From: a virus
Taxonomy: Duplodnaviria; Caudoviricetes
Virus record (IMG/VR): IMGVR_UViG_3300021960_000017
DNA: 64,000 nucleotides
Strand: one strand, 5' to 3'
Shown here in pieces: positions 17,214-38,887 of this stretch (its first letter is position 1; each line of letters opens with the position of its first letter). The notes beneath the pieces are model-generated. The model was given only the letters and a program-made list of their open reading frames with translations. It was not told the origin of the DNA and did no database searches. Position numbers and translations under genes: made by a program.

Positions 17214-17263
17214 AAGATTTGTCCTTATAAATATATGTGTATATTATAAGGTAATTCGCAAAA

Positions 17264-17947
17264 ATGTTCAATATATATGTTGGCTGGGATAGCAGAGAAG
17301 ACATTGCTTACCAGGTATGTGAGCATAGTATCTTAAGAAGAACATTTCGTAAAAAAGTAAATGTTATTCCACTTAAACAGCATGAATTAAGAGAACAAAA
17401 AGTCTACTGGAGAGATATAGACAAACTTGCCAGTACTGAATTTACCTTTACAAGATTTTTAGTACCCTACCTAAACGAGTACGCTGGATGGGCAGTGTTT
17501 TGTGACAGTGACATGGTGTGGCTTACAGATGCGTGTGAGTTAATTAAAGGGTTGGATCCGTCTAAAGCAGTGTATGTAGTTAAACATGACTACAACCCTC
17601 CTGAAGGTATAAAGATGGACGGCCAGTTACAGTTGCCCTACCCTCGCAAGAACTGGAGCAGTATGATGATATTTAACTGCGAGCATCCTAGTTGTAAGGG
17701 ATTAGATTTAGAAACGGTTAATAGTAAAACAGGTGCATACTTGCATCGTTTTGAATGGTGTTCGGATAGTGAAATAGGAGAACTGGGCCCTGAATGGAAC
17801 TGGTTAGTAGGACACTATCAGGAAGGCACTGATGGTACTCCCAAAGTCCTACACTATACAGAAGGTGGGCCCTGGTTCGAAAACATGCGTGATTGTGAAT
17901 ACGATCACATCTGGAAAAAAGAAGTTATTAACCTTTATAGTTCATGA
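17264..17947 (+). CDS. GT-A glycosyltransferase
   Basis: YVGWDSRE, STEFTFTRF, FCDSDM, RKNWSS, EWNWL, HYTEGGPWF. Confidence 0.88.
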   Translation: MFNIYVGWDSREDIAYQVCEHSILRRTFRKKVNVIPLKQHELREQKVYWRDIDKLASTEFTFTRFLVPYLNEYAGWAVFCDSDMVWLTDACELIKGLDPSKAVYVVKHDYNPPEGIKMDGQLQLPYPRKNWSSMMIFNCEHPSCKGLDLETVNSKTGAYLHRFEWCSDSEIGELGPEWNWLVGHYQEGTDGTPKVLHYTEGGPWFENMRDCEYDHIWKKEVINLYSS

Positions 17948-18996
17948 TGCAAAATATACGAGAAAGATTTGACAAGACGGGAATTGCGCTGTTTAGGGAA
18001 GTGCAAATACTTGACTTGGGTAAAACTGGACAAGAAATATTTGTAGAAGGCGAAGATATATATCCCCTATTGTTGGGCAAGAATAAGAATGCAGCACTTC
18101 AGCATTTAAAAATATCTGATCACCAGCCAGTGTTTAATAAAAAAGAGGGTAAATATTTTTATTGGTATACCAGACCAACTTTTAATTATTATCATACTTT
18201 CCTGGACAGTTTTGGATGCCTTTGTAGATATTTAGAGTTAAAAGAACGTATACCAGATTTGCAGTTTATGTTTAATCAGAGCCCAACGCCCAAAGGAGGT
18301 TCACTAAAGCATCCTCCTTATGTTTATGAACTATTAGAATTGTTAGGAATAGATTACCAACTAACCGATGAAAATACACAATATGAATTAGTATATTTTG
18401 GTGATACTATGTGTAACGATCCCGGCACTGGTAAACGTATATGGCCCAGTATAGAACAATATACCCAACTTAATAATTTAATACAACTAGCACATAAAAA
18501 AGTAAATTTACCACCTATAGAAAGGGTGTATTTAAGTAGACGTGCTCATGCAAATCCTTTAAAAAATCGAAAGGATATTATTGGCGAGGATAATACTGTA
18601 AAACGCGGTCTTACAAACGAAGATCAAGTTGTAGATATTTTATCAAGTTTGGGCTATACAGAAGTTTTTGGGGAAAACTATACACTAGCAGAAAAAATAG
18701 TGTTGTTTAATGGAATGAAAAAATATATTAGTACTGCGGGTGCTGGAGTTACTAATATAATCTGGACAATGCCAAACCCGTGCAGTGTAGGCGGAATACA
18801 TACGCCAGGATTTCCTTTTCCTTCAGCAAATCACAAACGACATATATGTTGCCATCCAGATTTTATAAAAGCAAAAATAGATAATTATCCAGGAAAAGTT
18901 CGTTATGTAGACGAATCAGGTAACCCAGCAGATTATAATAGGCCCTGGTATATCAATAACCTAGTAGCATTCGAAAACTGGGCGAAAACTATCTAA
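17944..18996 (+). CDS. GT61 (DUF563)-like glycosyltransferase
   Basis: NYYHTFLD, VYLSRR, RGLTNEDQV, EKIVLF, GAGVTNIIW. Confidence 0.8.
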   Translation: MMQNIRERFDKTGIALFREVQILDLGKTGQEIFVEGEDIYPLLLGKNKNAALQHLKISDHQPVFNKKEGKYFYWYTRPTFNYYHTFLDSFGCLCRYLELKERIPDLQFMFNQSPTPKGGSLKHPPYVYELLELLGIDYQLTDENTQYELVYFGDTMCNDPGTGKRIWPSIEQYTQLNNLIQLAHKKVNLPPIERVYLSRRAHANPLKNRKDIIGEDNTVKRGLTNEDQVVDILSSLGYTEVFGENYTLAEKIVLFNGMKKYISTAGAGVTNIIWTMPNPCSVGGIHTPGFPFPSANHKRHICCHPDFIKAKIDNYPGKVRYVDESGNPADYNRPWYINNLVAFENWAKTI

Positions 18997-19129
18997 ATGA
19001 TCCAATAACCAATAATACTAACAGGCTTAGGAAGCCTAGAATTATTACCCAGCCGATAAATCCTAGCACGCCGGGAAACCATTGTGCTAGGAGTATAACA
19101 ATTATTACTAATAGTAAAAATGCTATCAT
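18989..19129 (-). CDS. 46-aa hydrophobic membrane peptide (not in ORF track)
   Basis: Translated by hand: MIAFLLLVIIVILLAQWFPGVLGFIGWVIILGFLSLLVLLVIGSFR; ATGA overlap with the upstream gene. Confidence 0.65.
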   Translation of the reverse strand: MIAFLLLVIIVILLAQWFPGVLGFIGWVIILGFLSLLVLLVIGSFR

Positions 19130-19371
19130 CTTGGTTTGCTATTGTTAAGGGCTTCTTCTTGTGCAGTTGCCATATTGCCCATTATATCCGAAAACATTCT
19201 AAACATAACAGCACTTTTGTCTTCTTCTTTCTGGGTAATAATACAACTAGCAGTTACGTCTGGTTGCGAAATCACCTTTGCGCGAGCAGCCAAACATTCG
19301 TCCATGTCAGTAAACCAAGCATTGCCAACTATTGTGCCAGCAACAGCAGTGACCATCATAATTGTATTCAT
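19126..19371 (-). CDS. small hypothetical early protein
   Basis: 81 aa; own sigma70 promoter and AAGGA RBS. Confidence 0.7.
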   Translation of the reverse strand: MNTIMMVTAVAGTIVGNAWFTDMDECLAARAKVISQPDVTASCIITQKEEDKSAVMFRMFSDIMGNMATAQEEALNNSKPR

Positions 19372-19398
19372 AGGTCCATCCTTTAATTAACTATACTT

Positions 19399-19426
19399 AT
19401 GATAACACACCTATTAATGGTGTCAA
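19399..19426 (-). promoter_or_regulatory. early sigma70-type promoter
   Basis: GG-TTGACA-N16-TATCAT with extended TG. Confidence 0.75.
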
Positions 19427-19451
19427 CCAGGATATTTTTTTTGTATTTTGG

Positions 19452-19479
19452 TTGACTTTCTGGCTATCCGTGTTAATAT
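19452..19479 (+). promoter_or_regulatory. early sigma70-type promoter
   Basis: GG-TTGACT-N16-TAATAT with CGTG before the -10. Confidence 0.75.
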
Positions 19480-19508
19480 GATCATAGTTAAAGAAAACGG
19501 AGAGAGCA

Positions 19509-19700
19509 ATGAGCAAAGAAGTTAGTGTACAAGAGCTATTTGCAAGCCTGCCAAATGTAGGTAACCTTGTAAAGTTTGATGTACGCACAGGCACCGTTTG
19601 TGGCACAGTAGTTGCTGTAACAGACAAGGCTGCTGTAGTTGAATCCGCACTAGGCGGTGTAATGTATCCTGTCCCTTTTAATAAGGTAAGGCCACTTTAA
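19509..19700 (+). CDS. small hypothetical early protein
   Basis: 63 aa, GGAGAGAGCA leader. Confidence 0.7.
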   Translation: MSKEVSVQELFASLPNVGNLVKFDVRTGTVCGTVVAVTDKAAVVESALGGVMYPVPFNKVRPL

Positions 19701-19707
19701 AAACTGG

Positions 19708-19735
19708 TTGACAACTGCGTTATTCGTGTTAATAT
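19708..19735 (+). promoter_or_regulatory. early sigma70-type promoter
   Basis: GG-TTGACA-N16-TAATAT with CGTG before the -10. Confidence 0.78.
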
Positions 19736-19764
19736 AGGTATAGTTAAACAAAAGGAGAGAGCAA

Positions 19765-19986
19765 ATGGCTACCGATTTAAGAAGCAACACAGAAGGTTTA
19801 CAGCTCACTCGTTTTTGGGGCGGAGAAAACCGCGGTGTTTGTGTACAGGTCACCTCCACTTACCGTAATCTTGCTAGTAACGAATTCTTTCAGTATGTAA
19901 CACTGAGCCGTGAAGAAGCTCGTACACTTGCAAATGATTTGCTGGCATTTGCTAACAAGCGTGAAATAGACATCACACGAGCATAA
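19765..19986 (+). CDS. small hypothetical early protein
   Basis: 73 aa, GGAGAGAGCAA leader. Confidence 0.7.
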   Translation: MATDLRSNTEGLQLTRFWGGENRGVCVQVTSTYRNLASNEFFQYVTLSREEARTLANDLLAFANKREIDITRA

Positions 19987-20181
19987 ATGGAAGATAAAAA
20001 ACAAGAGTTTTGGGACGCATTGCGTATGCCTGTTGAGGCAGATAGAAACTGTTCTAACTGTTTACACGGAGGAATAGACACTAAATTCAGATGCTTTCGG
20101 TGTACGCACTGTCCTAGACCAGCTGGTTACTATAGTCCATATGACAAATTAGAAAATTTGTGGGAATGGGATAAAAGTTGA
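19987..20181 (+). CDS. small Cys-rich (CxxC...CxxC) protein
   Basis: CSNC and CFRCTHC. Confidence 0.6.
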   Translation: MEDKKQEFWDALRMPVEADRNCSNCLHGGIDTKFRCFRCTHCPRPAGYYSPYDKLENLWEWDKS

Positions 20182-20190
20182 TAAAAATGG

Positions 20191-20218
20191 TTGACGTAAT
20201 AGCAATCCGTGCTATTAT
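20191..20218 (+). promoter_or_regulatory. early sigma70-type promoter
   Basis: GG-TTGACG-N16-TATTAT with CGTG before the -10. Confidence 0.75.
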
Positions 20219-20243
20219 GAAGGTATAAAGAGGAGAGAGAGAA

Positions 20244-20396
20244 ATGATAAAGTTCGTAATTACAGCCTACACAGAAAAAGGCCCTTATTCCCAAACTTCA
20301 CGTGGCACCGTAAAAGGCATGAACGACGCCTGCACTGAATTACTTCGTGATCCTAGTATTGTTCGTTACACCGTTGAAGAGGTGGAGATAGACTAA
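20244..20396 (+). CDS. 50-aa hypothetical early protein (not in ORF track)
   Basis: MIKFVITAYTEKGPYSQTSRGTVKGMNDACTELLRDPSIVRYTVEEVEID; strong GAGGAG RBS; stop overlaps the next ATG. Confidence 0.7.
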   Translation: MIKFVITAYTEKGPYSQTSRGTVKGMNDACTELLRDPSIVRYTVEEVEID

Positions 20397-21445
20397 TGGA
20401 TTATGTTCTTATCGCAGACGGGCAGTATCAAAAACTGCAAATCAGAGACAAAGTGTTCCCTGTAGTAAAGGGCTTTAAAACTGGCGCCCGCGGGTCCTAC
20501 ATTACTGTGGATGCTAGCATCCTTGGTAGTGACTATGCTCGCCCAGTGCGTATTAAGTGCAGCAAAAAGGATCTAACCTTTGTAGAAGCAGATGCTTACA
20601 AGCGTCAGCTGGCTGCACTAGACATTAATCGGGATATCAAAGCTAAAAAGCAAACGACCTTTACAGAAGCTCAAGATGAGCAACGCATGAAAGAGATTGA
20701 GGAGCGTTTCGAAATCCTCAACGAAATGACAGGTGCTCTTAAGAGCGGTGACATTCGTGCAATGATTGTTACAGGTCCTCCGGGTGTAGGCAAGAGCTAT
20801 GGCGTTACACAGACACTAGAAGCACAAAGCATCTTTGAAGATGTTGCCAGTCAAAAGCGTAAGTTTGAAGTTGTCAAGGGTGCAATGACTGCACTAGGCT
20901 TGTATGCCAAACTATACGAGTACAGCGATAAAGGTAGCGTACTGGTATTCGATGACTGTGACAGTGTACTTATGGACGACCTTGCACTTAACATTCTTAA
21001 GGCTGCACTAGACTCAGGAAAGAAGCGTAAGATATTCTGGAATGCAGACAGTGCTAAATTGCGTAGTGAAGGCATTCCAAGTGACTTTGAGTTTAAAGGT
21101 ACTGCTTGCTTTATTACAAACATCAAGTTCGAGAATGTAAAGAGCAAACGGTTACAGGATCACTTAGAGGCACTGCAATCACGCTGCCACTATCTGGACC
21201 TTACACTAGACACAATGCGTGACAAGTTCCTACGCATCAAACAGATTGCTAGAACTGGCAAGTTGTGGGGTGCAGACTATGGCTTTACTCCAGAAGGAGA
21301 ACAGGAAATCCTAGACTTTATGTATGCTAACCGCAACAAACTCCGCGAAATGAGCCTGCGTATGGCTCTTAAGATTGGTGACCTTAAAAAAATATCAGAA
21401 AAGTGGAAAAGTCTTGCAGAAAGTACTTGCATGAAGCGAGTATAA
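20396..21445 (+). CDS. AAA+ family ATPase
   Basis: Walker A GPPGVGKS, Walker B VLVFDDCD, FITN sensor, ALQSRC arginine finger. Confidence 0.88.
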   Translation: MDYVLIADGQYQKLQIRDKVFPVVKGFKTGARGSYITVDASILGSDYARPVRIKCSKKDLTFVEADAYKRQLAALDINRDIKAKKQTTFTEAQDEQRMKEIEERFEILNEMTGALKSGDIRAMIVTGPPGVGKSYGVTQTLEAQSIFEDVASQKRKFEVVKGAMTALGLYAKLYEYSDKGSVLVFDDCDSVLMDDLALNILKAALDSGKKRKIFWNADSAKLRSEGIPSDFEFKGTACFITNIKFENVKSKRLQDHLEALQSRCHYLDLTLDTMRDKFLRIKQIARTGKLWGADYGFTPEGEQEILDFMYANRNKLREMSLRMALKIGDLKKISEKWKSLAESTCMKRV

Positions 21446-21513
21446 TGTAGTATACTACAAGTTAGTTAGCTGTATCACTTGCTCCTCTCCTCCTCCAGAT
21501 GCAGTTAACACTG

Positions 21514-21550
21514 GGCGGTGTGTTTAGAAATAGACACACCGCCACTCTTT
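21514..21550 (+). terminator. intrinsic terminator
   Basis: GGCGGTGTGTTTA-gaaa-TAGACACACCGCC followed by a T-rich tract. Confidence 0.75.
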
Positions 21551-21564
21551 TATTATAATAAAGT

Positions 21565-22224
21565 ATGAGTGATATGCTTTTATACACGGTAGGTGACAGT
21601 TTTACATTTGGACAGGAACTAACCGATCCTGAGAAATCCTGTTGGCCTAGACTTGTAGCAGACGCCATTGATTATAAATTAATTAATGATGGCCGGCCAG
21701 GAGTAGGTAATGAGTTTATGGTTAAAAAAACTATGCAGGCTGTTGGCGAAATAAAGCCTGATTTGGTTATAGTATCCTGGTCTAGTGCTGGGCGTTGCGA
21801 GTATGCAGATGAATGGGGAGCATATGATATTTGGCCTGCATGTAGCAGTCGTGTGTTTGACCAAGATCCTAAACTATCCTACCGTAAGCAATTAATAAAA
21901 TACATTACAGCCTATAATAATGAAGAACATGAATACCGTAGATGGTTACGACAAGTTATTCTTTTACAGAGCTTTTTAAAATGTTATAATGTAAACTATA
22001 AATTTGTATCAGCATTTGACAATCAACGCCGCAATAAACGATATATGAAGCATAGTGACGGCTATGTTCAAATGATAGATACCGATAACTTTATAGGTTG
22101 GCCATATGAAGGGCTTGTGGAATGGTCTTACAGAACTCCTCAAGGCCCTGGTGGTCATCCACTTGAAGAAGGTCACCAAAAGGTAGCGGAGAAGATAGTT
22201 GAAGCCTTGCGTATTACACGTTAA
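21565..22224 (+). CDS. SGNH/GDSL hydrolase-like protein
   Basis: GDSFTFG, NDGRPGVGN, GGHPLEEGH. Confidence 0.8.
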   Translation: MSDMLLYTVGDSFTFGQELTDPEKSCWPRLVADAIDYKLINDGRPGVGNEFMVKKTMQAVGEIKPDLVIVSWSSAGRCEYADEWGAYDIWPACSSRVFDQDPKLSYRKQLIKYITAYNNEEHEYRRWLRQVILLQSFLKCYNVNYKFVSAFDNQRRNKRYMKHSDGYVQMIDTDNFIGWPYEGLVEWSYRTPQGPGGHPLEEGHQKVAEKIVEALRITR

Positions 22225-23656
22225 AGACGAAGTTAATGTTAAGATAGAAGGCTTAGATTTGGATACTCGCCGCAAGTTGAGTAATAAATTTAAGTATGAG
22301 ATACCTGGTGCTCGTTACATGCCAGCAGTAAGACTTGGACGCTGGGACGGCAAGATGGCTTTCTTCCAGTTAGGCGGCAGTACCTATATTAACTTGCTGC
22401 CTGAGATACTTCCCATCCTTAGCAGTGACGGTTATGATGTTACACTTAATGACGTCAGAGACTATCAGATGGATTATCCGCTGGAGCCAGTGGATGAGAA
22501 TAGTTATGCTGACAAAGTATGGCCTGACAAGCATCCAGCAGCAGGGCAGCCAATCATACTCAGAGACTATCAAGTAGAAGTTATTAATAACTTTTTAACT
22601 AACCCACAAAGCCTACAAGAAGTAGCAACTGGTGCTGGCAAAACACTTATAACCGCAGTGCTAAGTCACAGATGCGAAGCACATGGACGCACTATTGTTA
22701 TTGTGCCCAACAAGAGTTTGGTGACACAAACAGAAGCAGACTACATCAACATGGGGTTAGATGTGGGCGTGTTTTATGGAGACCGTAAAGAGTTTGGGCA
22801 TACACATACCATCTGTACCTGGCAAAGCCTAAACATACTTCTTAAGAATACAAAGAACCAGGTTGCTCCTATAACTATACAAGAGTTTCTAGAGGGCGTC
22901 GTGTGCATCATGGTAGATGAGGTGCATATGGCTAAAGCAGATGCACTAAAGACATTACTCACTGGCGTAATGAGCCAGATACCCATACGCTGGGGATTAA
23001 CTGGAACAGTACCCAAGGAAGACTTTGAAAAGATCAGTTTGGTGTGCAGTTTAGGTCCAGTTATTAATCACATTAGTGCTGCTGATTTACAGGAAAAAGG
23101 AGTACTTGCAAATTGCGAAGTGAATGTGTTACAATTAATAGACTTAAAAGAGTACACAAACTATCAGAGTGAACTAAAATACCTACTAGAGCAGGAAGAT
23201 AGAATAGATTACATTGCTGGTGTAATTGAACAAATTAGACTTACAGGGAATACCCTAGTATTAGTGGATAGGATAAATGCAGGAACAAAAATTACCCAGA
23301 GGATTCCGGGCGCCGTTTTTGTCAGCGGTGGCACGAAGGCACAAGCTCGTAAACAAGAATATGACGAAGTCGCAGATTCTAGCGATAAGGTTATTGTGGC
23401 CACTTATGGTGTTGCCGCTGTGGGTATTAATATCCCTCGCATTTTCAATCTCGTACTTTTGGAGCCTGGTAAGAGCTTCGTTAGAGTTATACAATCTATA
23501 GGGCGAGGTATTCGTAAAGCAGAAGACAAGGACTTTGTTCAAATCTGGGACATTACAAGTACTTGTAGATTTGCAAAACGACATCTAACAAAAAGAAAAG
23601 CATTTTATACTGAAGCAAAATACCCATTTAACGTACAGAAAGTAGACTGGAAATGA
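22199..23656 (+). CDS. uvsW: SF2 DNA helicase UvsW
   Basis: LRDYQ, ATGAGKT, MVDEVH, GLTGT, AVGINIP, QSIGRGIR. Confidence 0.92.
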   Translation: MKPCVLHVKDEVNVKIEGLDLDTRRKLSNKFKYEIPGARYMPAVRLGRWDGKMAFFQLGGSTYINLLPEILPILSSDGYDVTLNDVRDYQMDYPLEPVDENSYADKVWPDKHPAAGQPIILRDYQVEVINNFLTNPQSLQEVATGAGKTLITAVLSHRCEAHGRTIVIVPNKSLVTQTEADYINMGLDVGVFYGDRKEFGHTHTICTWQSLNILLKNTKNQVAPITIQEFLEGVVCIMVDEVHMAKADALKTLLTGVMSQIPIRWGLTGTVPKEDFEKISLVCSLGPVINHISAADLQEKGVLANCEVNVLQLIDLKEYTNYQSELKYLLEQEDRIDYIAGVIEQIRLTGNTLVLVDRINAGTKITQRIPGAVFVSGGTKAQARKQEYDEVADSSDKVIVATYGVAAVGINIPRIFNLVLLEPGKSFVRVIQSIGRGIRKAEDKDFVQIWDITSTCRFAKRHLTKRKAFYTEAKYPFNVQKVDWK

Positions 23657-25689: not shown

Positions 25690-26483
25690 TAGACTTTAAC
25701 ACAGATAAAGTTGTAATTGCTTACTATCCTCCGGGCGCCGGCGGAAAGACTGTCTTAAACTGTCTAGGAATAAGCAAAAACTTTTGTATACAAGATATTG
25801 ATGCGCCGCTAGACAGTCTTAGCAAGTTTAATCTTATAAAAACACGAATAGATCAATATGAAATAAGCAATAATTGGTCAGATTTAGATTTAGGTTGTGT
25901 ACAACTTTATGGATTAGATGCATTTAAAGGGTTTAGTCCTGCTTTTTATCGTACTGCAATTTATAATGAAAAATTAGTAGAATTATTTCAAAGTGGTATA
26001 TATATGCCAATTGTTTGCCATACATATGCACAATTAAAAAATGTCCTTGGTATTTTTCCTAACAGCCAAATAATTGGGTTGCAGAATAGTTTTAATTTTA
26101 CAGCAAGCCGAAATTACGAAATTTTTAATATTAAAAAAGGATATAATGAAATAAAAGGTGACAATTGGCCCAGGGTAGTACCTAAAAAATTTTCCGATTT
26201 CCCAAAGGAAATTCAACAGGAAATACTAAATGACTTTCCCACATTTTATAATGCAATAACAAACAGAAAACATTATAACGATACATTTTTACAAGATGTT
26301 CATATGGATCATATATGGGATGTGCAATGGTTTTCAAATGTAGAAAAAACTTTAACTGAACTAAAATCCCTTTATAATGCTCTGAAGTTGGATGATTTTG
26401 ATACAGAAAAAATCCGATATTATTACACTAGATGGAAAACAAAAGTATATGATATATCCATGGATAACAATAAAGTCGTATAA
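25686..26483 (+). CDS. P-loop/sulfotransferase-like hypothetical protein
   Basis: N-terminal YYPPGAGGKTV loop; internal YNEIKGDNWP module. Confidence 0.55.
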   Translation: MIDFNTDKVVIAYYPPGAGGKTVLNCLGISKNFCIQDIDAPLDSLSKFNLIKTRIDQYEISNNWSDLDLGCVQLYGLDAFKGFSPAFYRTAIYNEKLVELFQSGIYMPIVCHTYAQLKNVLGIFPNSQIIGLQNSFNFTASRNYEIFNIKKGYNEIKGDNWPRVVPKKFSDFPKEIQQEILNDFPTFYNAITNRKHYNDTFLQDVHMDHIWDVQWFSNVEKTLTELKSLYNALKLDDFDTEKIRYYYTRWKTKVYDISMDNNKVV

Positions 26484-27220
26484 TGCAAATGAATGACTTT
26501 ACAAGTGTTATAAAAGATGCTATAATTAATTATAGTATGGAACCTAAAGATTATACATGTAAGTATTGTGGCAGATCGTATCGTAAAGAAAGCACTCTAG
26601 CAGCGCATCTATGTGAGCCTAAACGTAGAGCACAACAGGAGCGCGAACCTGGTGTACAGATTGGTATGCAGGCTTATTTGCGTTTCTATGAGCTCACACA
26701 GGGCAGTGCTAAACTAAAAACATATGCTGACTTCAGTGAATCGCCATACTATAATGCTTTCGTGAAGTTTGGCAGACATTGTCAGAGCATTCGTGCAATA
26801 AACATCAGTGGCTTTATAGACTATGTAATTAAGGAAAACAAGAAGCTGGATAACTGGACCAAGGACAGTGTATACCAGGACTTCTTGTTTATGCATCTAA
26901 AACGAGAGAGTGTACAGGATGCACTGGAGCGTAGTCTGGAAACCATGGCAGATTGGGCGGCTGAAAAGGAAAGTGTATACAATCATTATTTCCTATATGC
27001 TAGTAAAAATCGTATTGTAAGTGATATTACCAAGGGACGCATCAGCAGTTGGGTTGTGTTTAACAGTAGTACTGGTATTGAAATGCTGGACAAGTTGAGT
27101 ACTGAACAAATTGAGATAGCGTTTCCCTATATTGATCCAGACTTTTGGAAACGCAAGTTTGTGGACTATGTTGCTGATACTGAATGGGTAAAGCATATAC
27201 TAAGTGAGGCAAAAATATAA
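26483..27220 (+). CDS. zinc-finger (C2HC) protein
   Basis: YTCKYCGRSYRKESTLAAHLC. Confidence 0.75.
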   Translation: MQMNDFTSVIKDAIINYSMEPKDYTCKYCGRSYRKESTLAAHLCEPKRRAQQEREPGVQIGMQAYLRFYELTQGSAKLKTYADFSESPYYNAFVKFGRHCQSIRAINISGFIDYVIKENKKLDNWTKDSVYQDFLFMHLKRESVQDALERSLETMADWAAEKESVYNHYFLYASKNRIVSDITKGRISSWVVFNSSTGIEMLDKLSTEQIEIAFPYIDPDFWKRKFVDYVADTEWVKHILSEAKI

Positions 27221-28263
27221 TGTTTGTGTCGGGTACTATAGAAGATTGCTTTACAATGCAATTTTTTGACATTTTATCAGCATATGCAAAAGCAAATAAT
27301 ATCAATATTGATACAGATAAAAAGTTTTATCTAATAGATCATGTTACAGATGATTATCCCCCTGGCTATGATCATTACTTTGTTGAAAATGGAAATGAGC
27401 ATTTATCTGTCTTAGGAAAAGCAAAACGTCTAGTAGACGAACAAAAAGCAGATTTACTATATGGGAGTTATCTGCATAAAAAGCATCCCTTATTTGATAG
27501 AACTATTAGTATGGCTGGAAGTACTAATCTTTCCAATATTTTTTATACAAGTCCTTTTTATTTTACTAGTTTGTTATTTAAAAAACAACATCGCGATAAA
27601 AATTTAACTTTTATAAATGGCGAAAACAGAAGTGTACGACATTATTTTTTAGATCAAGTTAGCAAATATATGGATTTAGTAATTAACAATAGTCAGTCAA
27701 CAATCAAAACAAATCTAACTGGATATTATAATAATGCTGATAATATCTTTGCAAATTATTGTAACAATTTATATGACATAGATAATTCACCTACCAATCA
27801 TATTAGTACGAATATAATAAGTTTTGGAAAATTTGGTCAAACCAGATTAAGTTATGAACCTTTGCCAGAGTATTTTACAAGTCGTTGTATGGTTTATCCA
27901 GAAACTACCTTTTATAACTGGGAAATATTTATTACTGAAAAAACATGGAAATGTGTAAAAGCAAAAACACACTGGATTATATTTGCAGGTGCAGGTAGTT
28001 ATGAAGTAATGCGTGAAGTAGGATTAAGGAGCATTATAGAACTATGTCCAGATTCTATGAATGACTTTGACAGTATCGAAGATCATATCCTTAGAATAGA
28101 AAAAATTAGTAAATGTTGTGAATATATTTCTAATAACAGTAGCATATTTGATAGTTCTGAAGCACATAATATGTTAGAATTAAATTATGAAAATTTCCAT
28201 AATCCATTATTAAGTGTGGAACGTTGCGTAAAACCCTTTATTGATAGGTATATAAGCACATGA
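27220..28263 (+). CDS. GT10-like protein (paralog of 14139..15128)
   Basis: FINGENR, VYPETT...FITEKTWK..KAKTHWIIFAG. Confidence 0.55.
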   Translation: MFVSGTIEDCFTMQFFDILSAYAKANNINIDTDKKFYLIDHVTDDYPPGYDHYFVENGNEHLSVLGKAKRLVDEQKADLLYGSYLHKKHPLFDRTISMAGSTNLSNIFYTSPFYFTSLLFKKQHRDKNLTFINGENRSVRHYFLDQVSKYMDLVINNSQSTIKTNLTGYYNNADNIFANYCNNLYDIDNSPTNHISTNIISFGKFGQTRLSYEPLPEYFTSRCMVYPETTFYNWEIFITEKTWKCVKAKTHWIIFAGAGSYEVMREVGLRSIIELCPDSMNDFDSIEDHILRIEKISKCCEYISNNSSIFDSSEAHNMLELNYENFHNPLLSVERCVKPFIDRYIST

Positions 28264-28823
28264 TTGACTTGCCTGATATTGATATAGACTTTAAAAATAG
28301 ATCTGATATTTTAAAGTTTATAGAGCATACACCTGCAAGATTAGAGACTGGCAGGCAGCATAACACTGGTGTATACTTTACTGACATACCCAGTGCAGGT
28401 GATGGTATGAGTACCTTTGATCACAAGCAAGCGGAACAACTGGGTTACTTTAAATTAGATTTGCTCAATGTAAGCGTATATGATCAGGTAAGAGACGAAG
28501 TACATTTAGTAGAATTAATGACTACAGAACCTCGGTGGAATAGACTCTGGGAAGATAGGGAGTTTTGTGAACAAATTGTACACATTGGTAATCATTATGA
28601 TTTAATTAAACAAATGAAGCCAGACAGTATACCCAGGATGGCTATGTTTTTAGCAGTGATGCGGCCAGGTAAAGCACACTTGCGTAACAAACCCTGGGCG
28701 GAAATTGCCAAAACTGTCTGGCAGCGACCTGAAAACGACAAATACTTTTTTAAGAAATCACACAGTGTAAGTTATGCACATCTTGTAGTCGTGCACATGA
28801 ATTTACTTGACTCGCTTAACTAG
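28260..28823 (+). CDS. minimal DNA polymerase III alpha (DnaE)-like protein, 187 aa
   Basis: PDIDIDF, HNTGVYF, FKLDLL, LAVMRPG, FKKSHSVSYA. Confidence 0.85.
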   Translation: MIDLPDIDIDFKNRSDILKFIEHTPARLETGRQHNTGVYFTDIPSAGDGMSTFDHKQAEQLGYFKLDLLNVSVYDQVRDEVHLVELMTTEPRWNRLWEDREFCEQIVHIGNHYDLIKQMKPDSIPRMAMFLAVMRPGKAHLRNKPWAEIAKTVWQRPENDKYFFKKSHSVSYAHLVVVHMNLLDSLN

Positions 28824-29177
28824 TGTAATATTTTTTCGCTTACTGCGACTTTTGGCCATCTCTAGTATGTTAACACTTGGTCCAAATATTATTTCTACAT
28901 CTTTAATATTAAGAGTAATTAAACTATAAGTGAACTTTGCCCAATCACCTTTTAGAAATAAGTTGATAGGAATTTTTTGGTTACTTTCCCACCACCAGGT
29001 TTCACCTAATTCCAAAAATTCTTGTCTATCGTCCTCAGTCTTTAGTGCTTCATAATTGTAAATGCTACAAACAGTATCATCGGAATTTTGTATTATTCCT
29101 AGATACTCATCACCACCATAACTAACAAGGCTTAAAAACGGATATTTTTCTTTTATTTCGTCGCTGATTCTTGCCAT
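28803..29177 (-). CDS. hypothetical protein
   Basis: 124-aa ORF, convergent with mini-DnaE. Confidence 0.75.
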   Translation of the reverse strand: MARISDEIKEKYPFLSLVSYGGDEYLGIIQNSDDTVCSIYNYEALKTEDDRQEFLELGETWWWESNQKIPINLFLKGDWAKFTYSLITLNIKDVEIIFGPSVNILEMAKSRSKRKNITLVKRVK

Positions 29178-30617: not shown

Positions 30618-31173
30618 AAAACTTTGGCAGTTTGGATGTAGTGTAAGCCTTGGTGAAGAAGCAACAAAGCCATATGGCGTCTGGATTGCAGAACATATTG
30701 GATATGAGTTTATCCAGCAAAGCGAAAGCAGTGCTAGCAATCCAAGTATAGCATTAAAGTTTTGCGAACTATATACCAAAATTGACAGTGAAGACCTAGT
30801 AATATTTGGCTGGAGCCATCCTAGCAGATCAAGTTGGTACAATAAACATGCACAGGGATGGGAACATTTAAATTATATACAACAGAAAAAGCGGGGAGAT
30901 CCGTTAACTGGAAGTGTGGTAGATTACATAACACACCAAATATGTGATTATGTTATAAACACCAACGATTGGTATCCTAAACATATTGTAGACACAACCT
31001 GTAAACTTAATAACCTAAAATATCTACATGTAGATTGTGTTCCAGGAATGGTAGATTATTTAATGCATGAACAAGCCAAATACATAGCAGACCACTTGCA
31101 TCCTAATGATCTAGGACATGAACGAATTTTCCACTTGATTAAATCGGACATTTTTAGTATAATTAATACATGA
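30610..31173 (+). CDS. SGNH-like protein
   Basis: FGCSVSLG, SSASN, DHLHPNDLGH. Confidence 0.75.
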   Translation: MSKKLWQFGCSVSLGEEATKPYGVWIAEHIGYEFIQQSESSASNPSIALKFCELYTKIDSEDLVIFGWSHPSRSSWYNKHAQGWEHLNYIQQKKRGDPLTGSVVDYITHQICDYVINTNDWYPKHIVDTTCKLNNLKYLHVDCVPGMVDYLMHEQAKYIADHLHPNDLGHERIFHLIKSDIFSIINT

Positions 31174-32129
31174 ATTCTATACAGCAAGCAGTAATTGATA
31201 ATCTGCCCAGGCAGAAGCGTAGTCCAGGTGGCTGGTATACGTTTAATGCTGTATGCTGTCATCACAATGGAGAGAGCCTGGACAAGCGTGGTAGAGGCGG
31301 TGCTATAACAGATGGCGAGGCAATAACCTATCACTGCTTTAACTGTGGATTTAAAACTGGCTGGCGTCCTGGCAGACATGTTAGTTACAAGTTTCGTAAA
31401 CTGCTAACCTGGTTAGGCGTAGAAGAAAATGAGCGTCAGCGTCTTGTAGTAGAAGCACTACGCATCAAGGAAACTGTAGTTGTTGAAGAGGAAGATGAGC
31501 CTGAATTTACTATAGAGTTTCCAGTTAGAAAACTTCCTGAAAATTGTGTACCATTAACTGAAGCACCGGCTGAGTTACAGGAGTATGCAGTCAGCAGATG
31601 CTTGCCAGTAGATGAATTGCTCTGGAGTAATACTAGAGCAGGCGGGTTATATCGTCGGATAATTGTACCTTGTACGTGGGACAATCGAGTCATAGGGTCA
31701 ACTGCCAGGGCGGTTACTGACGATATAAAACCCAAATACTTTAACAACTATGAAGCCAACTATGTTTATGGAATAGATCGCCAATTAAAGGATGGAAAGT
31801 TTAGCATAGTGTGCGAGGGTATTTTGGATGCACTAGTAATTGGTGGTATAAGTATACTAACTAACAGGTGTAATGACATACAAGCACAGATAATAGACAC
31901 GTTGGGTAGAGAAATTGTGCTGGTTCCTGACAGAGACAGGGCAGGACAATCACTAATAGATGATGCACTAGAGCATGGCTGGAGTGTAAGTTTTCCTGAA
32001 TGGGAACCAGATGTAAAAGATATTAATGCCGCAGTGGTACGATATGGCAAACTTTTTACTTTAAAATCCATTATTGATGCAAAACAAACCAATAGACTAA
32101 AAATAAACTTAATGAGGAAAAAGTTATAA
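31170..32129 (+). CDS. DNA primase (Zn-binding + TOPRIM, gp61-like)
   Basis: CCH...YHCFNC, CEGILDAL, PDRDRAG, KDIN. Confidence 0.9.
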   Translation: MNSIQQAVIDNLPRQKRSPGGWYTFNAVCCHHNGESLDKRGRGGAITDGEAITYHCFNCGFKTGWRPGRHVSYKFRKLLTWLGVEENERQRLVVEALRIKETVVVEEEDEPEFTIEFPVRKLPENCVPLTEAPAELQEYAVSRCLPVDELLWSNTRAGGLYRRIIVPCTWDNRVIGSTARAVTDDIKPKYFNNYEANYVYGIDRQLKDGKFSIVCEGILDALVIGGISILTNRCNDIQAQIIDTLGREIVLVPDRDRAGQSLIDDALEHGWSVSFPEWEPDVKDINAAVVRYGKLFTLKSIIDAKQTNRLKINLMRKKL

Positions 32130-32962
32130 TGGATATCTGGCTAGGGTTTCTGCCTGGAAGCGGTGCTACTAGTATAGAAATGCTTTTACGGTCTGACTGC
32201 ACTAGTTTGGAAACATTACCTGTTGATGATTTTTGGGTTGAGGGGAAAGATTTTGTTACAGGGCATGGTAGTGGCAAACAATGGCATCCTTACACCTCCC
32301 AAGAGTTATTTAATCCAAAATATAAAAAAGCTAAAGTTAATATTTTTACACCTATAATTCCTATGTCAGATCTCAAAGGTAAGGAAATTTTAGAACATAT
32401 TTATATTCAACCAGGAATAAAATTTTATCTTGGACCATCATGTAAACGTAGTTGTGAATTTGCAGTAATAACAACACAAAAAGTACCTTCTTACCCTAAC
32501 AACATTATAAATTTGGAGCATTCTGCTCAATGGAGTACTGGTAGTCTTGATAAATGGGAAATTAGGGAAGCAATAAGTCTAAACTTTATGCAATGGTTTG
32601 TACCACAAATGATAGAACAATGGCAAATTGCTAGCAATCTTGGGTTTACTTGTATAGATACATTAGAACTGTTTAGTTGTTATCCAACAGTAGTAGATAG
32701 CATAGTAAACCAAATTGGGTGTACTATTACTGATAATGAAATGTATAAGCAGCATGTTAATCACTGGTTTACGGGACAAGATAAAATATGGAATGATTGG
32801 GACAGATATAATGAATATAAAAATGGTAAAGGAAAATTAACAGGAGATATTGTACATGAAGCAATGATCCAGTATAATTTAAGAGAACGTGGAATAGAAT
32901 TAAAGTGTTATGGATTAAACGAGTTTCCAGACGCCCAGACATTAAAGGATTTTTATGAGTAG
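32129..32962 (+). CDS. P-loop/sulfotransferase-like hypothetical protein
   Basis: N-terminal FLPGSGAT loop, similar to 25686 and 34856. Confidence 0.5.
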   Translation: MDIWLGFLPGSGATSIEMLLRSDCTSLETLPVDDFWVEGKDFVTGHGSGKQWHPYTSQELFNPKYKKAKVNIFTPIIPMSDLKGKEILEHIYIQPGIKFYLGPSCKRSCEFAVITTQKVPSYPNNIINLEHSAQWSTGSLDKWEIREAISLNFMQWFVPQMIEQWQIASNLGFTCIDTLELFSCYPTVVDSIVNQIGCTITDNEMYKQHVNHWFTGQDKIWNDWDRYNEYKNGKGKLTGDIVHEAMIQYNLRERGIELKCYGLNEFPDAQTLKDFYE

Positions 32963-34352
32963 AGAATACACACCAGATTTACAAAAACTGTTTTTAGAAA
33001 TGATGATGCAGGATGCACAGAATTATGTGCGAGTGCAGAACATTTTTAATCCAGAGAACTTTGACCGTAGTTTGCGTGATGCAGCAAAGTTTATTAAAGA
33101 GCATGCTACTAAGCATAGTACTATGCCTACATATGAACAGTTAAATGCAGTAACGCAGGTAGATGCAAAGCCTATTCCAGAGATGGCAGAAGGGCACAAC
33201 GATTGGTTCCTGGAAGAGTTTGAATCATTTACTAAACGGCAGGAACTGGAACGTGCTATTCTTAAAGCAGCAGACTTATTGGAAAAAGGAACATATGATC
33301 CCGTAGAAAAACTAATCAAAGATGCAGTGCAGATCAGTCTAACCAAGGACATGGGCACAGACTATTTTGAAGATCCTCGCAGCAGACTTATGAAGTTAAA
33401 AGACAACAATGGCCAAGTAAGCACAGGTTGGCCTGCGCTGGATCGCAAATTGTTTGGTGGCATGAACAAAGGTGAGTTGAACATTTTTGCAGGTGGTAGT
33501 GGTAGTGGTAAGAGTTTGTTTATGCAGAACTTGGCTGTTAACTGGGCAACGGCAGGACTCAATGGTGTATATTTGACACTGGAACTTAGTGAAGAACTGA
33601 GTGCAATGCGTATTGATAGTATGCTCACAAACATTGCCAGTAAAGAGATATTCAAGGATCTTGACACAGTAGAGATGAAAGTCAAGATGGTTAGCAAAAA
33701 AGCAGGCAACTTGCAGATTAAATATTTGCCAGCACAGAGCACAGTTAATGATGTTAGAGCATACTTAAAAGAACTTGAGATTACAAAGAACATGCGTATT
33801 GACTTCCTGCTTATTGATTATCTGGACTTGTTGATGCCAGTTAGTGCAAAGGTAAGTCCCAATGATTTGTTTGTTAAAGACAAGTATGTGAGTGAAGAAC
33901 TACGCAACTTGGCTAGAGAACTTAACACAATCTTTGTAACAGCATCGCAGTTGAACAGAAGTGCAGTTGAAGAGATTGAGTTTGATCACAGCCATATTAG
34001 TGGTGGTATCAGTAAGATTAATACAGCAGACAATGTGTTTGGTATCTTTACGAGTAGAGCAATGCGTGAGCGTGGACGCTATCAGATACAGTTAATGAAA
34101 ACTAGAAGTTCAAGCGGTGTTGGCCAAAAGGTAGACCTGGAGTTTGACATTGAAAGTTTGCGTATTAGAGACCTTGGCGAAGATGAAGACTATCAGAACT
34201 TTAAGAAGCAAAGCAGTTCAATCTACGAGCAACTAAAGAACGGAGACAAAACTCCTGAAGCTGAGGGCGATGCTGAAGTAAGTAAGATTACAGCAAATGT
34301 GCAGAGCAGTAAACTTAAAGACATGTTAGCAAGTTTAAAGCAAAGTGACTAA
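32955..34352 (+). CDS. replicative DNA helicase (DnaB/gp41-like)
   Basis: GGSGSGKS, TLELSE, LLIDYLDL, TASQLNR, MKTR. Confidence 0.93.
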   Translation: MSREYTPDLQKLFLEMMMQDAQNYVRVQNIFNPENFDRSLRDAAKFIKEHATKHSTMPTYEQLNAVTQVDAKPIPEMAEGHNDWFLEEFESFTKRQELERAILKAADLLEKGTYDPVEKLIKDAVQISLTKDMGTDYFEDPRSRLMKLKDNNGQVSTGWPALDRKLFGGMNKGELNIFAGGSGSGKSLFMQNLAVNWATAGLNGVYLTLELSEELSAMRIDSMLTNIASKEIFKDLDTVEMKVKMVSKKAGNLQIKYLPAQSTVNDVRAYLKELEITKNMRIDFLLIDYLDLLMPVSAKVSPNDLFVKDKYVSEELRNLARELNTIFVTASQLNRSAVEEIEFDHSHISGGISKINTADNVFGIFTSRAMRERGRYQIQLMKTRSSSGVGQKVDLEFDIESLRIRDLGEDEDYQNFKKQSSSIYEQLKNGDKTPEAEGDAEVSKITANVQSSKLKDMLASLKQSD

Positions 34353-34878: not shown

Positions 34879-35491
34879 TAACACCGGTGGCGGATTAATT
34901 TGTGATTTACTAAATCATAAGCACACTTGGTCTGATAGTTATAAAATTTCAAATATAGAACATAATGTTTTTAAACAAACTGATACTCCGACTATATCTA
35001 CTAAGATATCAGACCTTGACATGTGGAATAAAGTTTCAAAAAAATATAAAAACTCTAACCAATGGTACGGAACACATGTTCATCCTAGTGCTATTCCCAA
35101 TCTAAATGACTTTGAAGAAGTATTAATTATAACAACTACTGGTCGTGACAGTAAATTATATAGATGGTTAAGGTATTACTACGGGTGGTTTTATAGTGTT
35201 GAACCCAATTGGATTGAAGATGATAACTTAGAACACATTGACAAAATTAGAGAAATGGCAAAAAATGTATTCATTGAATTCTCAGGATGGAAAGATTATC
35301 CATGTGTTGAGTTTTCAGATATAGTGTCTGGAAAATTTGTAACTGAGAGAAATCTCAATGTTGAAAGATTCAATGATTGGCAATCTAAAAATCAGTTTTT
35401 GTTTAATAGCTCTATTAACAAATGGGGTGTTTTAAGATTTGATGAAGCAGAATATGAAATAACTACTGGGCTAGCATACAAGTATCATTAA
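34856..35491 (+). CDS. P-loop/sulfotransferase-like hypothetical protein
   Basis: N-terminal FSNNTGGGLICDLL; GTHVHP. Confidence 0.5.
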   Translation: MKLVCFSNNTGGGLICDLLNHKHTWSDSYKISNIEHNVFKQTDTPTISTKISDLDMWNKVSKKYKNSNQWYGTHVHPSAIPNLNDFEEVLIITTTGRDSKLYRWLRYYYGWFYSVEPNWIEDDNLEHIDKIREMAKNVFIEFSGWKDYPCVEFSDIVSGKFVTERNLNVERFNDWQSKNQFLFNSSINKWGVLRFDEAEYEITTGLAYKYH

Positions 35492-37181
35492 GATACTTGT
35501 CTAGTCTATAGCCCTTTGCTTCCCAACAGTCAATATAGCGTGTGCCGTTAGTCATTCGTATCTTGCCTGATCCTACAATAACATCGTGGTCTCTGTAGCC
35601 AAAGGGCTTCTTAATAGTTACGTCTACATATTCACTGTTGCCTACACCTAGCGTAACAAATGTAACATATCTTCCTTGCTCCCCCTTGAATACACGGCCG
35701 TTTGCTACTAGTCCTGCAAAGTTTACACGGTCCAGATAGGTTTCTTGTACAAACATATTGGGCATAAACTCTGGCTGTGACCAATAGCCATTGCGTTTGT
35801 ATTGTGTTACGGGAGATTCACATACACCGTTTTCGTATCCTAGTTCACGCAGGTCCCAGCCTGCTGTTTTTGCTTCCTGTTTGTGCACCCAGCGTTTATA
35901 TGATCCCTGGCAATGTTTGAGTGCTGCTTGCCAGAACTTCATAGGATTGTGTGCTTTTTGATATGCCAGTGCCCAGATAAGTCTGCCCAGGTTTACAGCA
36001 TGAGCACGACATAAACCAAAGTTGCCCAGCCCATATAACTCTTGTATAATTGCTTCCTTGTCATCATGCTCGCCCATGCGAGTCATAAACTCCATTACAC
36101 GCTCTTCATCTTTTTTAGCAAATGCCCGTCTGTACATGTCTGCTTCATACAAGTCACAACCTATGAGTTTGGCTATTTTGCGTATAGCATCGTCTTCATA
36201 TACAATAGTGTCCTCCAGTCTGTTCTCTGTCCAGTCCTGGAAAAAACTTGCCTTTTGTCTGCCAGTGGTTGCAACAGGGCGTATAAGTGCTGTAGCAAAT
36301 ACACAGTCTGCTTTTGATTGAGGTTGTATTGCACGGAATAGGCGGCGCATTGCAGGGGACTCCGCTTGTGTTACACCAATTACATCGCCTCTGCATAGCA
36401 GTTGACTTGTCTCAAAGTCTTGTTCTGGATATGCTTCCAGTGGTGTGTCAGGGTCTATTTCTATAAGTTGGCTTAGTCCACGGTTAGCCAGTATGTCTAT
36501 TTTAAGGTGCTCTAGATCTTCTACTTCACGTTTGTCTAATAATATTTGATTGTCTTTGTTGAATAAACTCTTGGGTAGTTTTCTTTCAAATACAAGAACA
36601 CCACCACAGTGTTTGCTGATACTACGTTTTTTGCCTATTAGTTTTCTTTCTATTCTCATGGCCTCTTCCTTGTCAATGTCTAAATCTTCATAACGAAAAT
36701 TGCGAGGAAGTCTACCAGACGCACCTAGACGGCGTGCCGCTTCTCTACGTGCACTGCGCTCCTTGTATAGCACATAGTTACTGATTCTTGCTGAACGTTC
36801 TGGCCAATTTGCAAAGATACGTTGCATGACAGTGTCCTGTTGCCAATGCGGAAAGTCTATGTCTACGTCTGGTAGATCATCCCTCAGTGGATTTAAGAAA
36901 CGTGCAACCGGTATTTGCCACCTTATGGGATCAACGTCTGTTATTCCTAGAAGATAACAGACAAGACTAGACCCTGCCGAACCCCGAGTCATATGTGTAA
37001 TGTCCTCGGTCAGAGCTAATACGTCACAAATTGTTAGGAAATAATCAGTAAAGCGAAGTTTGAGTATAATCTCAAGTTCTTCGACTAGTCTATCGTGGTA
37101 CTCTTGAGCCTCTGGTATGTGCCTTACAAACCTGCCAAGTAGCCTATCTAATTGAGCCTTCGCGTCTTTTGGTAATTTCAT
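35463..37181 (-). CDS. dnaE: compact DnaE-like DNA polymerase III alpha lacking the PHP domain
   Basis: RGSAGSSLVCYLLGIT, PDVDIDF, HCGGV, KIDIL, CRAHAV, C-terminal OB fold; 572 aa. Confidence 0.88.
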   Translation of the reverse strand: MKLPKDAKAQLDRLLGRFVRHIPEAQEYHDRLVEELEIILKLRFTDYFLTICDVLALTEDITHMTRGSAGSSLVCYLLGITDVDPIRWQIPVARFLNPLRDDLPDVDIDFPHWQQDTVMQRIFANWPERSARISNYVLYKERSARREAARRLGASGRLPRNFRYEDLDIDKEEAMRIERKLIGKKRSISKHCGGVLVFERKLPKSLFNKDNQILLDKREVEDLEHLKIDILANRGLSQLIEIDPDTPLEAYPEQDFETSQLLCRGDVIGVTQAESPAMRRLFRAIQPQSKADCVFATALIRPVATTGRQKASFFQDWTENRLEDTIVYEDDAIRKIAKLIGCDLYEADMYRRAFAKKDEERVMEFMTRMGEHDDKEAIIQELYGLGNFGLCRAHAVNLGRLIWALAYQKAHNPMKFWQAALKHCQGSYKRWVHKQEAKTAGWDLRELGYENGVCESPVTQYKRNGYWSQPEFMPNMFVQETYLDRVNFAGLVANGRVFKGEQGRYVTFVTLGVGNSEYVDVTIKKPFGYRDHDVIVGSGKIRMTNGTRYIDCWEAKGYRLDKYLNDTCMLAQ

Positions 37182-37256
37182 TGCCTTTGTTTGCCTAAAT
37201 GCCTAAAGTTTTCGTTTTTTGCCTAAGTCATTACTGAGTAATGACGTTTTTATTTA
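37182..37256 (-). promoter_or_regulatory. late promoter + palindrome + 4x (T/A)AGGCA leader of the dnaE-like gene
   Basis: TAAATA 37251-37256; GTCATTACT-N-AGTAATGAC 37227-37245; repeats at 37220, 37200, 37192, 37182. Confidence 0.65.
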
Positions 37257-37289
37257 GCAATCAAGGCCAACAAATTTAATTTTTTTGAT

Positions 37290-37598
37290 TTATAATAGTT
37301 TCTTTTTTAGGATTTGGCGCACATCGTCATCTGAAAACTTAATATGCCAAGTGCCATTAAATGTTACATAATCAACATTTGTCAAATATGCATAGTCTTT
37401 ATTATCTGTTGTCATGGTACTGTATTGAAACAGTTCAGATAATATTAAATCTTTATACCTGATAGTGTTTATTTTGATATAACTATCAGAGTGTGTTCTA
37501 TAATTTTTTCCGTAAAAATGTAATTTTACTTCAGTAGGTGATATTTCTTCACGCTTTATATAAAATGGACCTATAGTTTCAAATTCAAATTCTATCAT
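37290..37598 (-). CDS. hypothetical protein
   Basis: 102-aa ORF coupled to the upstream gene. Confidence 0.6.
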   Translation of the reverse strand: MIEFEFETIGPFYIKREEISPTEVKLHFYGKNYRTHSDSYIKINTIRYKDLILSELFQYSTMTTDNKDYAYLTNVDYVTFNGTWHIKFSDDDVRQILKKKLL

Positions 37599-38236
37599 TT
37601 ATATCTCGTTAATATTAAAACACTTCTGCGAGGATACTTACCACTAAAGTTTGCACTTACGTGAAAACGGTTTCTAGGCCAAGTCATTGCTGTACCCAAA
37701 GTCCAATGATGTATAAAGTCTACAGTAAACCCTGATAATTTATTATAGTCTAAATGTGTAAGGTACGTGTAATCAGTTTTGTCAAATGGTGTGTTGTCTA
37801 GACCGTATTCTTCTCTAGTAGTTTGTTTATAAGTAGTAACACCTTTATTTCCTAAACCTGTTTCAGCATTAAACGAAACAGCTCGGTCACTGCTTTGATC
37901 AAAAATCAGTGTATAATAGGATTCCTCATCTACGTGCGTTAACGGAATAAGATAACTAGTAGCTATATTGTCATTTTTGTCATGTTCAATATAGCCATCA
38001 CTATGTACGCCACCTGCACCATAATCACTATTGATATTTACAGTAGTAATAACTTCATTATCAGGTAGTTTCGCTTGCAGTTGTTCAAGTTTATGAGCAA
38101 AAAAAGGCTGTGCATAGTGGCACATTGTTTGATAACGAAGGCCGTTGTTACGACTTAACTCTTTAGGAAGCACTGAGTCGTACCATAAAAACCATTCGCA
38201 TTCTTCTTGGGTAAAAAAGTTGGGTATCTGTTTCAT
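37595..38236 (-). CDS. 2OG-Fe(II) oxygenase-like protein
   Basis: VHSDG...SYLIPL...RFHVS...RRS. Confidence 0.65.
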   Translation of the reverse strand: MKQIPNFFTQEECEWFLWYDSVLPKELSRNNGLRYQTMCHYAQPFFAHKLEQLQAKLPDNEVITTVNINSDYGAGGVHSDGYIEHDKNDNIATSYLIPLTHVDEESYYTLIFDQSSDRAVSFNAETGLGNKGVTTYKQTTREEYGLDNTPFDKTDYTYLTHLDYNKLSGFTVDFIHHWTLGTAMTWPRNRFHVSANFSGKYPRRSVLILTRYK

Positions 38237-38850: not shown

Positions 38851-38859
38851 TATTATAAT

Positions 38860-38887
38860 AATATAACGGATGCCAATATTAAGTCAA
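38860..38887 (-). promoter_or_regulatory. sigma70-type promoter
   Basis: TTGACT-N16-TATATT. Confidence 0.6.

Follow-up and report, generated by a model that had tools for sequence, protein, structure and literature searches.

The window analysed here is a single stretch of 64,000 nucleotides from the genome of a virus of the Caudoviricetes (IMG/VR record IMGVR_UViG_3300021960_000017). An ORF scan of the window identified a gene with an ATG start at 28260..28823 on the (+) strand that encodes a protein of 187 aa. Its start codon overlaps the stop codon of an upstream 347-aa ORF (ATGA), and its 3' end shares 21 nt with the 3' end of a convergent 124-aa gene. The protein contains, in this order, the motifs PDIDIDF (residues 5-11), HNTGV (34-38), KLDLL (65-69) and KKSHS (165-169). 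M1 lies 5 residues ahead of D6, and the RGS motif is absent from the polypeptide. A preliminary description of this DNA had reported a 187-aa ORF with four DnaE motifs in that order, and both the ORF call and the translation agree with it. The gene, its conserved codons and the neighbouring genes are listed below.

20396-21445: 'clamp loader' (weak AAA/clamp-loader match, E 8.5e-4)
22199-23656: UvsW-like helicase
26483..27220 (+): Zn-finger protein of 245 aa, phrog_11058 (E 4e-54), conserved upstream neighbour
28260..28823 (+): gene assigned by similarity to a split minimal Pol III alpha, of which it would encode the C-terminal half that binds metal and template (phrog_11778 E 2e-54, structure Z 9.0, dN/dS 0.05)
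28275..28289 (+): D6-I-D8-I-D10 codons, DxDxD strand (E. coli D401, D403, D405; alignment to 2HNH 398-406; invariant in 46 of 46 sequences)
28452..28460 (+): K65-L-D67 codons, third catalytic Asp (E. coli K553, D555; alignment to 2HNH 553-555; invariant in 46 of 46)
28662..28673 (+): R135-P-G-K138 codons, fingers motif (E. coli R639-P640-G641; 2HNH 639-641; R135, P136 and K138 invariant)
28755..28775 (+): K166-S-H168...Y172 codons, fingers KSH motif (E. coli K758-S759-H760...Y764; 2HNH 758-764; K166, H168 and Y172 invariant)
28803..29177 (-): convergent downstream neighbour of 124 aa, phrog_11637 (E 1.5e-30)
31170-32129: primase
32955-34352: DnaB helicase

It can be seen that the gene lies in a replication-gene neighbourhood. 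The preliminary description had placed it close to genes for a clamp loader, a Zn-finger protein, a primase and a helicase; the last three were found, whereas the gene called 'clamp loader' gave just the weak match listed above. Of 55 related loci, 49 have the Zn-finger gene directly upstream of the gene, in many cases right up against its start codon, and the phrog_11637 neighbour is present in 51 of the 55, as well as in the phages Paride and Phosso. The Zn-finger protein has an N-terminal C2H2-like finger, with C26, C29, H42 and C44 invariant, and was modelled confidently (pLDDT 89.5) as an all-helical protein; comparison of the model with solved structures gave no significant match, the best being at E 1.0 with Foldseek and at Z 4.6 with VIA wide. 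We regard it as a candidate third component of the mini-polymerase described below, or of the primosome.

The 347-aa ORF (27220-28263, (+)) that is found between the Zn-finger gene and the gene of interest has no Pfam or PHROG match. The overlap of its stop codon with the following start codon made it a possible partner, but it was rejected as such because it is present in just 2 of the 55 related loci, and we conclude that it is a sporadic insertion. The DNA is AT-rich, and scanning it for sigma-70 promoters and terminators gave no useful information. From UvsX to the genes for ribonucleotide reductase, the window is colinear with Paride, a PA5oct-like phage, and a near-identity DNA search with the 24-36 kb portion of the window gave no match among cultured phages.

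Relation of the 187-aa protein to bacterial Pol III alpha

The phrog_11778 'DNA polymerase' profile matched the protein over its full length (E 2.2e-54, residues 6-184 on positions 8-192 of 197); the match to Pfam PF07733, the NTPase domain of Pol III alpha, was sub-threshold (11.9 bits vs a cut-off of 23.9) and covered residues 3-15 only. When a profile of 25 orthologs was aligned with E. coli DnaE (2HNH), the two were colinear in four islands of the latter, 398-420, 535-559, 615-641 and 740-767. In this alignment D6, D8, K65 and D67 are equivalent to D401, D403, K553 and D555, R135-P136-G137 to R639-P640-G641, and K166-S167-H168 to K758-S759-H760.

An AlphaFold model of the protein alone had a mean pLDDT of 77, the palm strands (residues 1-70) being predicted at 44-63 and the helical fingers (71-187) at 78-97. 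The top 14 matches to this model in a Foldseek search were all Pol III alpha (probabilities 0.25 to 0.99). Likewise, VIA aligned the model with 2HNH 401-779 (Z 9.0, rmsd 6.4, 177 aligned residues), with 183 residues of the phage protein covering a stretch of 379 in E. coli DnaE; the top 11 chains of this search were all C-family polymerases, and the next chain, an unrelated one, scored Z 3.2. The derivation from DnaE that had been proposed is supported by the profile alignment to 2HNH and by the structural matches, and an AlphaFold model, which had been suggested as a check, has a fold that matches C-family polymerases, with a palm part of low confidence.

In common with bacterial Pol III alpha (DnaE; E. 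coli 2HNH and Thermus aquaticus 3E0D) the phage protein therefore has homologous palm strands with the equivalents of D401, D403, D555 and K553, along with the RPG and KSH motifs of the fingers, and the structural Z is 8-9 over residues 401-779. However, it differs from bacterial DnaE in that the PHP domain, the thumb (about 433-510 in E. coli) and the beta-clamp-binding, OB and tau-binding domains are all missing, the fingers are only about 120 residues long, and the GS loop is on another polypeptide. The absence of the PHP domain, the RGS motif, most of the fingers and the OB fold had been remarked on previously; alignment to DnaE supports each of these and adds the thumb.

Orthologs were detected by tblastn in 96 cultured phage records, all of them jumbo phages, in keeping with the earlier statement that small DnaE-like genes occur in some such phages, and 93 of the 96 matches span at least 80% of the query. 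The phages concerned are PA5oct-like phages (48% identity), Phosso (46%), Atu_ph07 (42%) and Rak2/PBECO4-like phages (Rak2-like, about 39%), together with Xanthomonas, Erwinia and Yersinia relatives. IMG/VR contributed 51 more loci with identities of 42-91%, and the exact protein is present on several ENA, JGI and Logan contigs. In 46 sequences, which include Paride and Phosso, residues D6, D8, D10, R14, H34, G37, K65, D67, N70, R135, P136, K138, K166, H168 and Y172 are invariant, and residue 167 is S or A.

The preliminary description had singled out two observations that would count against the gene, loss of the catalytic Asp from orthologs and a frameshifted remnant, and had suggested that dN/dS be assessed. 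D6, D8 and D67 are retained in all 46 sequences, and the reading frame is intact, with ortholog length held at 183-200 aa across 40-90% identity. The dN/dS ratio against the nearest relative (L005, 91% identical) is 0.05, which indicates purifying selection. We conclude that the gene is real, conserved and under purifying selection, and that it is not a frameshift remnant.

These data also bear on whether the gene could be a decaying or non-functional piece of what was once a full-length phage DnaE, such as might remain after duplication of a 572-aa DnaE that is also encoded in the window. A second DnaE-like gene does lie just 7 kb away, and the PF07733 score of 11.9 bits falls well short of the 23.9 cut-off; however, a dN/dS of 0.05 and a conserved length are not what decay would give, the two proteins resemble each other in their motifs only (9 aligned residues with a BLASTP E of 0.008; hhalign probability 12.6%), and the 572-aa gene is missing from most genomes that have the 187-aa gene. 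We consider decay to be extremely improbable, and on sequence comparison the 572-aa protein is only remotely related to the 187-aa one.

The 572-aa gene itself (35463-37181, (-)) encodes RGS and DxD motifs in one chain that has no PHP domain, and matches PF07733 positions 19-260 (E 7e-43) and also the fingers domain. It is part of a reverse-strand block (35463-39662), which is inserted between the DnaB gene and a small virion-protein gene, two genes that adjoin one another in Paride. One of four near-complete relatives (G008) has a 564-aa counterpart, 8 kb downstream of the 187-aa gene homologue and on the opposite strand, and no counterpart is present in Paride, Phosso, G006, G007 or G009. 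Among cultured or deposited sequences, an uncultured 484-kb phage gave the best match (LR756508.1, 39% identity). We considered whether the 572-aa protein could be the source of the nucleotide-binding function that the 187-aa protein lacks, and rejected this, since the protein is self-contained and most genomes that have the 187-aa gene do not encode it.

The N-terminal half and the position of the split

A minimal Pol III alpha that is split in two has been described in group 2.2 jumbo phages (Iyer et al., 2021, Viruses 13:63, PMC7824862). It comprises an N-terminal NTP-binding protein and a C-terminal protein that binds Mg2+ and template, whose genes lie far apart in genomes that also encode a family B polymerase, and much the same accessory role beside the family B replicase as we consider below was suggested for it (PMC7824862). 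Judged by its sequence, the 187-aa protein is the C-terminal subunit of this published enzyme (phrog_11778), and so half an enzyme and not a whole one; we refer to it below as the C-half and to its counterpart as the N-half. It shares with the published system the family (by a full-length profile match), the split point and the replication neighbourhood, and the phage appears to be of the same T4-related kind, the window being colinear with PA5oct-like genomes and relatives having a family B polymerase. Unlike the cultured members, to which its identity is no higher than 48%, the copy in the window belongs to an uncultured aquatic phage; the genome additionally has the contiguous 572-aa PHP-less DnaE, and a partner half would lie beyond the window. 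We conclude that the finding made in the window correctly re-discovers a published family, although what had been taken for a whole enzyme is one half of it, and that the C-half appears to be an uncultured-phage addition to a family known from sequence.

The only matches to PF07733 in Phosso and Paride are ORFs of 177 and 169 aa, respectively, that cover profile positions 21-95 and belong to phrog_11127. These N-half genes are 224 kb (Phosso) and 44 kb (Paride) from the C-half genes, and the proteins end ...WGVGRGSSVASYVLFLIG...EFL(K/N). The C-half opens with PDIDIDF at about position 100 of the same profile. That the two ends fall at matching profile positions indicates that the break is in a short loop between the nucleotide-binding and the metal-binding elements of the Pol-beta-like palm, and the RGS motif is 'missing' from the C-half because it is encoded on the separate N-half polypeptide.

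The position of the break is highly constrained. In a metagenome collection of N-half proteins, 255 of 258 end exactly 33 residues past the G of GRGS and 252 of 258 end in EFL plus one residue (K, R or N); the modal length of the family is 172 aa. On the other side of the break, all 44 C-half orthologs analysed begin at the DxD strand and lack the GS/RGS loop, with 30 of the 44 starting 5 residues ahead of the first Asp and the others 2-8 residues ahead. With 2-8 residues before DxD and an N-half that ends 33 residues after GRGS there is no space for intein pieces, and the halves would therefore stay separate. A search for a fused form of at least 351 aa returned a single 390-aa chimera with a methyltransferase fragment, and this lends weak support to the view that all members are split.

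The DnaE of cyanobacteria is also encoded by two distant genes; there, each half bears part of an intein, and splicing yields a single chain. The phage system is similar in that a C-family catalytic subunit comes from two distant genes, but the phage proteins are split elsewhere and have no intein segments at the split ends.

Stand-alone N-halves are abundant in metagenomes, mostly aquatic ones, with at least 8000 proteins at E <= 0.001 and at least 6189 at E <= 1e-30. Nearly all of them are 168-177 aa long, and they include thousands of 90%-identity clusters. Among distant relatives, the N-half neighbourhood is kept in locus L126 (1759-5519) and in Paride (L062:31968-37939): in both, a gene for a MazG-like pyrophosphatase is found upstream of the N-half gene and one for a clamp-loader AAA+ subunit 2-3 genes downstream.

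The two halves occur together. Among cultured phages the numbers of records with the N-half and with the C-half are equal for Escherichia (34/34), Erwinia (8/8), Salmonella (8/8), Xanthomonas (4/4), Yersinia (4/4) and Agrobacterium (2/2), and surplus N-half matches are parts of ordinary full-length phage DnaEs. We also inspected five large IMG/VR contigs that were picked for carrying the N-half; four of them also carry the C-half, the fifth being only 39% complete, and in those four the N-half gene is 67-92 kb downstream of the C-half gene. The N-half is thus present in Paride, Phosso and all four near-complete relatives; five of these genomes are syntenic, and in them its gene follows that of the C-half at a distance of 44-92 kb. 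In Paride, the N-half gene adjoins that for the clamp loader. An ORF of about 890-960 aa for a family B polymerase is present in all four near-complete relatives, and none is found inside the window.

No N-half is encoded within the 64-kb window. Given its distance of 44-92 kb downstream in syntenic relatives, it is expected here beyond the window. Walking outwards by exact-protein matches did not meet it within about 20 kb past the end of the window, where genes for ribosomal protein S21, Hsp20, ClpS, IMPDH and CsgF/CsgG were found. Three large IMG/VR contigs with the C-half (G001-G003) likewise have no N-half within the at most 73 kb that they contain downstream of it, which we do not read as absence because the spacing elsewhere is 67-92 kb. 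A scan of viral contigs with the poor patterns that could be derived from a two-sequence N-half alignment gave nothing. A 172-aa N-half protein that ends YDLDITEFLR (P0122) was considered as this phage's own and was dropped because it occurs in other samples.

The preliminary description had presented the gene as a self-sufficient 'mini-DnaE'. For this to be correct, the 187-aa protein would have to bind nucleotide and primer-template and extend primers by itself, possibly while bound to the primase or to the Zn-finger protein. The invariance of the three catalytic Asp and of the fingers motifs is in its favour, as is the position of the gene within the primase/helicase block with a Zn-finger neighbour in 49 of 55 loci. 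However, the GS/RGS loop that defines nucleotide binding in a Pol-beta-like fold is missing from the protein, a separate gene with exactly that loop co-occurs in every sufficiently complete relative, and the palm part was predicted with low confidence (pLDDT 44-63) when modelled alone. The claim of self-sufficiency is not borne out by these results. We think it very unlikely that the protein acts in this way, and its sequence suggests that it is probably not a stand-alone polymerase.

A predicted complex of the two halves and its putative role

Association of the halves was examined by complex prediction, in which the C-half from the window was combined with P0122, the N-half of a related uncultured phage, as a stand-in, each with its own alignment. 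The pair scored 0.90 and the best of three controls 0.00; among solved complexes 58 of 80 attain that mark, and among mismatched pairs 2 of 110, counts that apply only roughly here because user-made alignments were supplied. Contact agreement between runs was at least 96%, and the partner was modelled with a pLDDT of at least 89. In the model, residues 133-146 of the N-half, which include the GRGS loop, contact residues 2-12 of the C-half, the DxD strand, and the C-terminal segment of the N-half packs on the helix that bears the KSH motif. The prediction supports binding between the halves; however, since single-chain DnaE structures have been solved, the halves of a split gene can pass such a test, and the score may only reflect likeness to those structures.

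We propose that the C-half is, very probably, one subunit of a two-polypeptide minimal nucleotidyltransferase of the C-family (Pol III alpha-type) in T4-related group 2.2 jumbo phages. It would supply the beta-strands with the three metal-binding Asp (D6, D8 and D67) and K65, along with a much reduced fingers module that bears the RPG and KSH motifs. The GRGS loop for the triphosphate of the incoming nucleotide would come from the separate N-half of about 170 aa, encoded tens of kb downstream next to the clamp-loader gene. We infer that the halves join non-covalently and without an intein, to give a heterodimer, as supported by the complex model, with one palm and a composite active site, in which the N-half would grip the triphosphate and the C-half would provide the metals and the contacts to the primer 3' end and the template. 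Such an enzyme would have about 360 aa in two chains, as against about 1160 aa in one chain for bacterial DnaE.

A different possibility is that the enzyme is split in this manner and is not a templated DNA polymerase, and that it makes untemplated tails, RNA or a nucleotide signal, or serves as a non-catalytic replisome adaptor. The transferases of the Pol-beta fold include many members that are not polymerases. The absence of the thumb, clamp-binding and OB domains is consistent with this possibility, efficient templated synthesis not being assured without them. A literature search found no biochemical or genetic study of any member of the family, as the preliminary description had also held with regard to biochemistry. 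Against a function other than templated synthesis, the conserved residues go beyond the generic transferase triad to those specific to the fingers of Pol III alpha (RPG and KSH, including H168 and Y172), the structural matches are exclusively to C-family polymerases, and both genes are in replication neighbourhoods, with primase and helicase here and with the clamp loader in Paride and L126. Retention of the Pol III alpha-specific fingers residues argues for templated synthesis, and we judge a function other than polymerase to be unlikely. E. coli H760, the equivalent of H168, has been discussed as the residue that selects the sugar; if so, H168 may be a sugar-selecting residue and a DNA product would be favoured, which we note as a lead.

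As to the role of the putative split polymerase, our best guess is that it is an accessory to the family B enzyme. Lacking a thumb and a clamp-binding domain it would probably be of low processivity, and we envisage a short-patch polymerase that assists the family B replicase, with possible tasks that include extending primase products before hand-off, gap filling and repair. The location of the C-half gene by those for primase and helicase, and of the N-half gene by that for the clamp loader, fits such a role. In low-GC Gram-positive bacteria, DnaE extends RNA primers before hand-off to PolC. The analogy is one of function only: there, too, a C-family helper works beside a different main replicase, and the C-half gene adjoins primase and helicase genes, but the Gram-positive DnaE consists of one full-length chain and works with the clamp.

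A more specific version, which we put forward tentatively and regard as rather doubtful, is that the two-gene mini-Pol III is a dedicated primer-extension or hand-off polymerase that links the primase-helicase to the family B replicase, possibly with the Zn-finger protein as a third subunit. If true, a bacterial-type polymerase core would be at work inside a replisome of the T4/archaeo-eukaryotic type, comparable to the passage from Pol alpha to Pol delta or from DnaE to PolC, and the contiguous PHP-less DnaE of this phage would, as a third polymerase, contribute another specialised activity. Among known versions of the core of the bacterial replicative polymerase, the split minimal Pol III is the smallest, and it is cut in two by nature at the active site; its family abounds in aquatic metagenomes. 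If active, it would define the minimal parts that a C-family polymerase needs and would show how T4-like replisomes use a second polymerase.

We also noted that a stretch of about 19 kb at 2931-22200 of the window, mainly on the (+) strand, has no counterpart in the colinear region of Paride, the comparison being with the Paride segment between the homologues of window 2473-2931 and of the UvsW-like helicase. A gene for a GT61-like glycosyltransferase is found inside this stretch, at 17944-18996.
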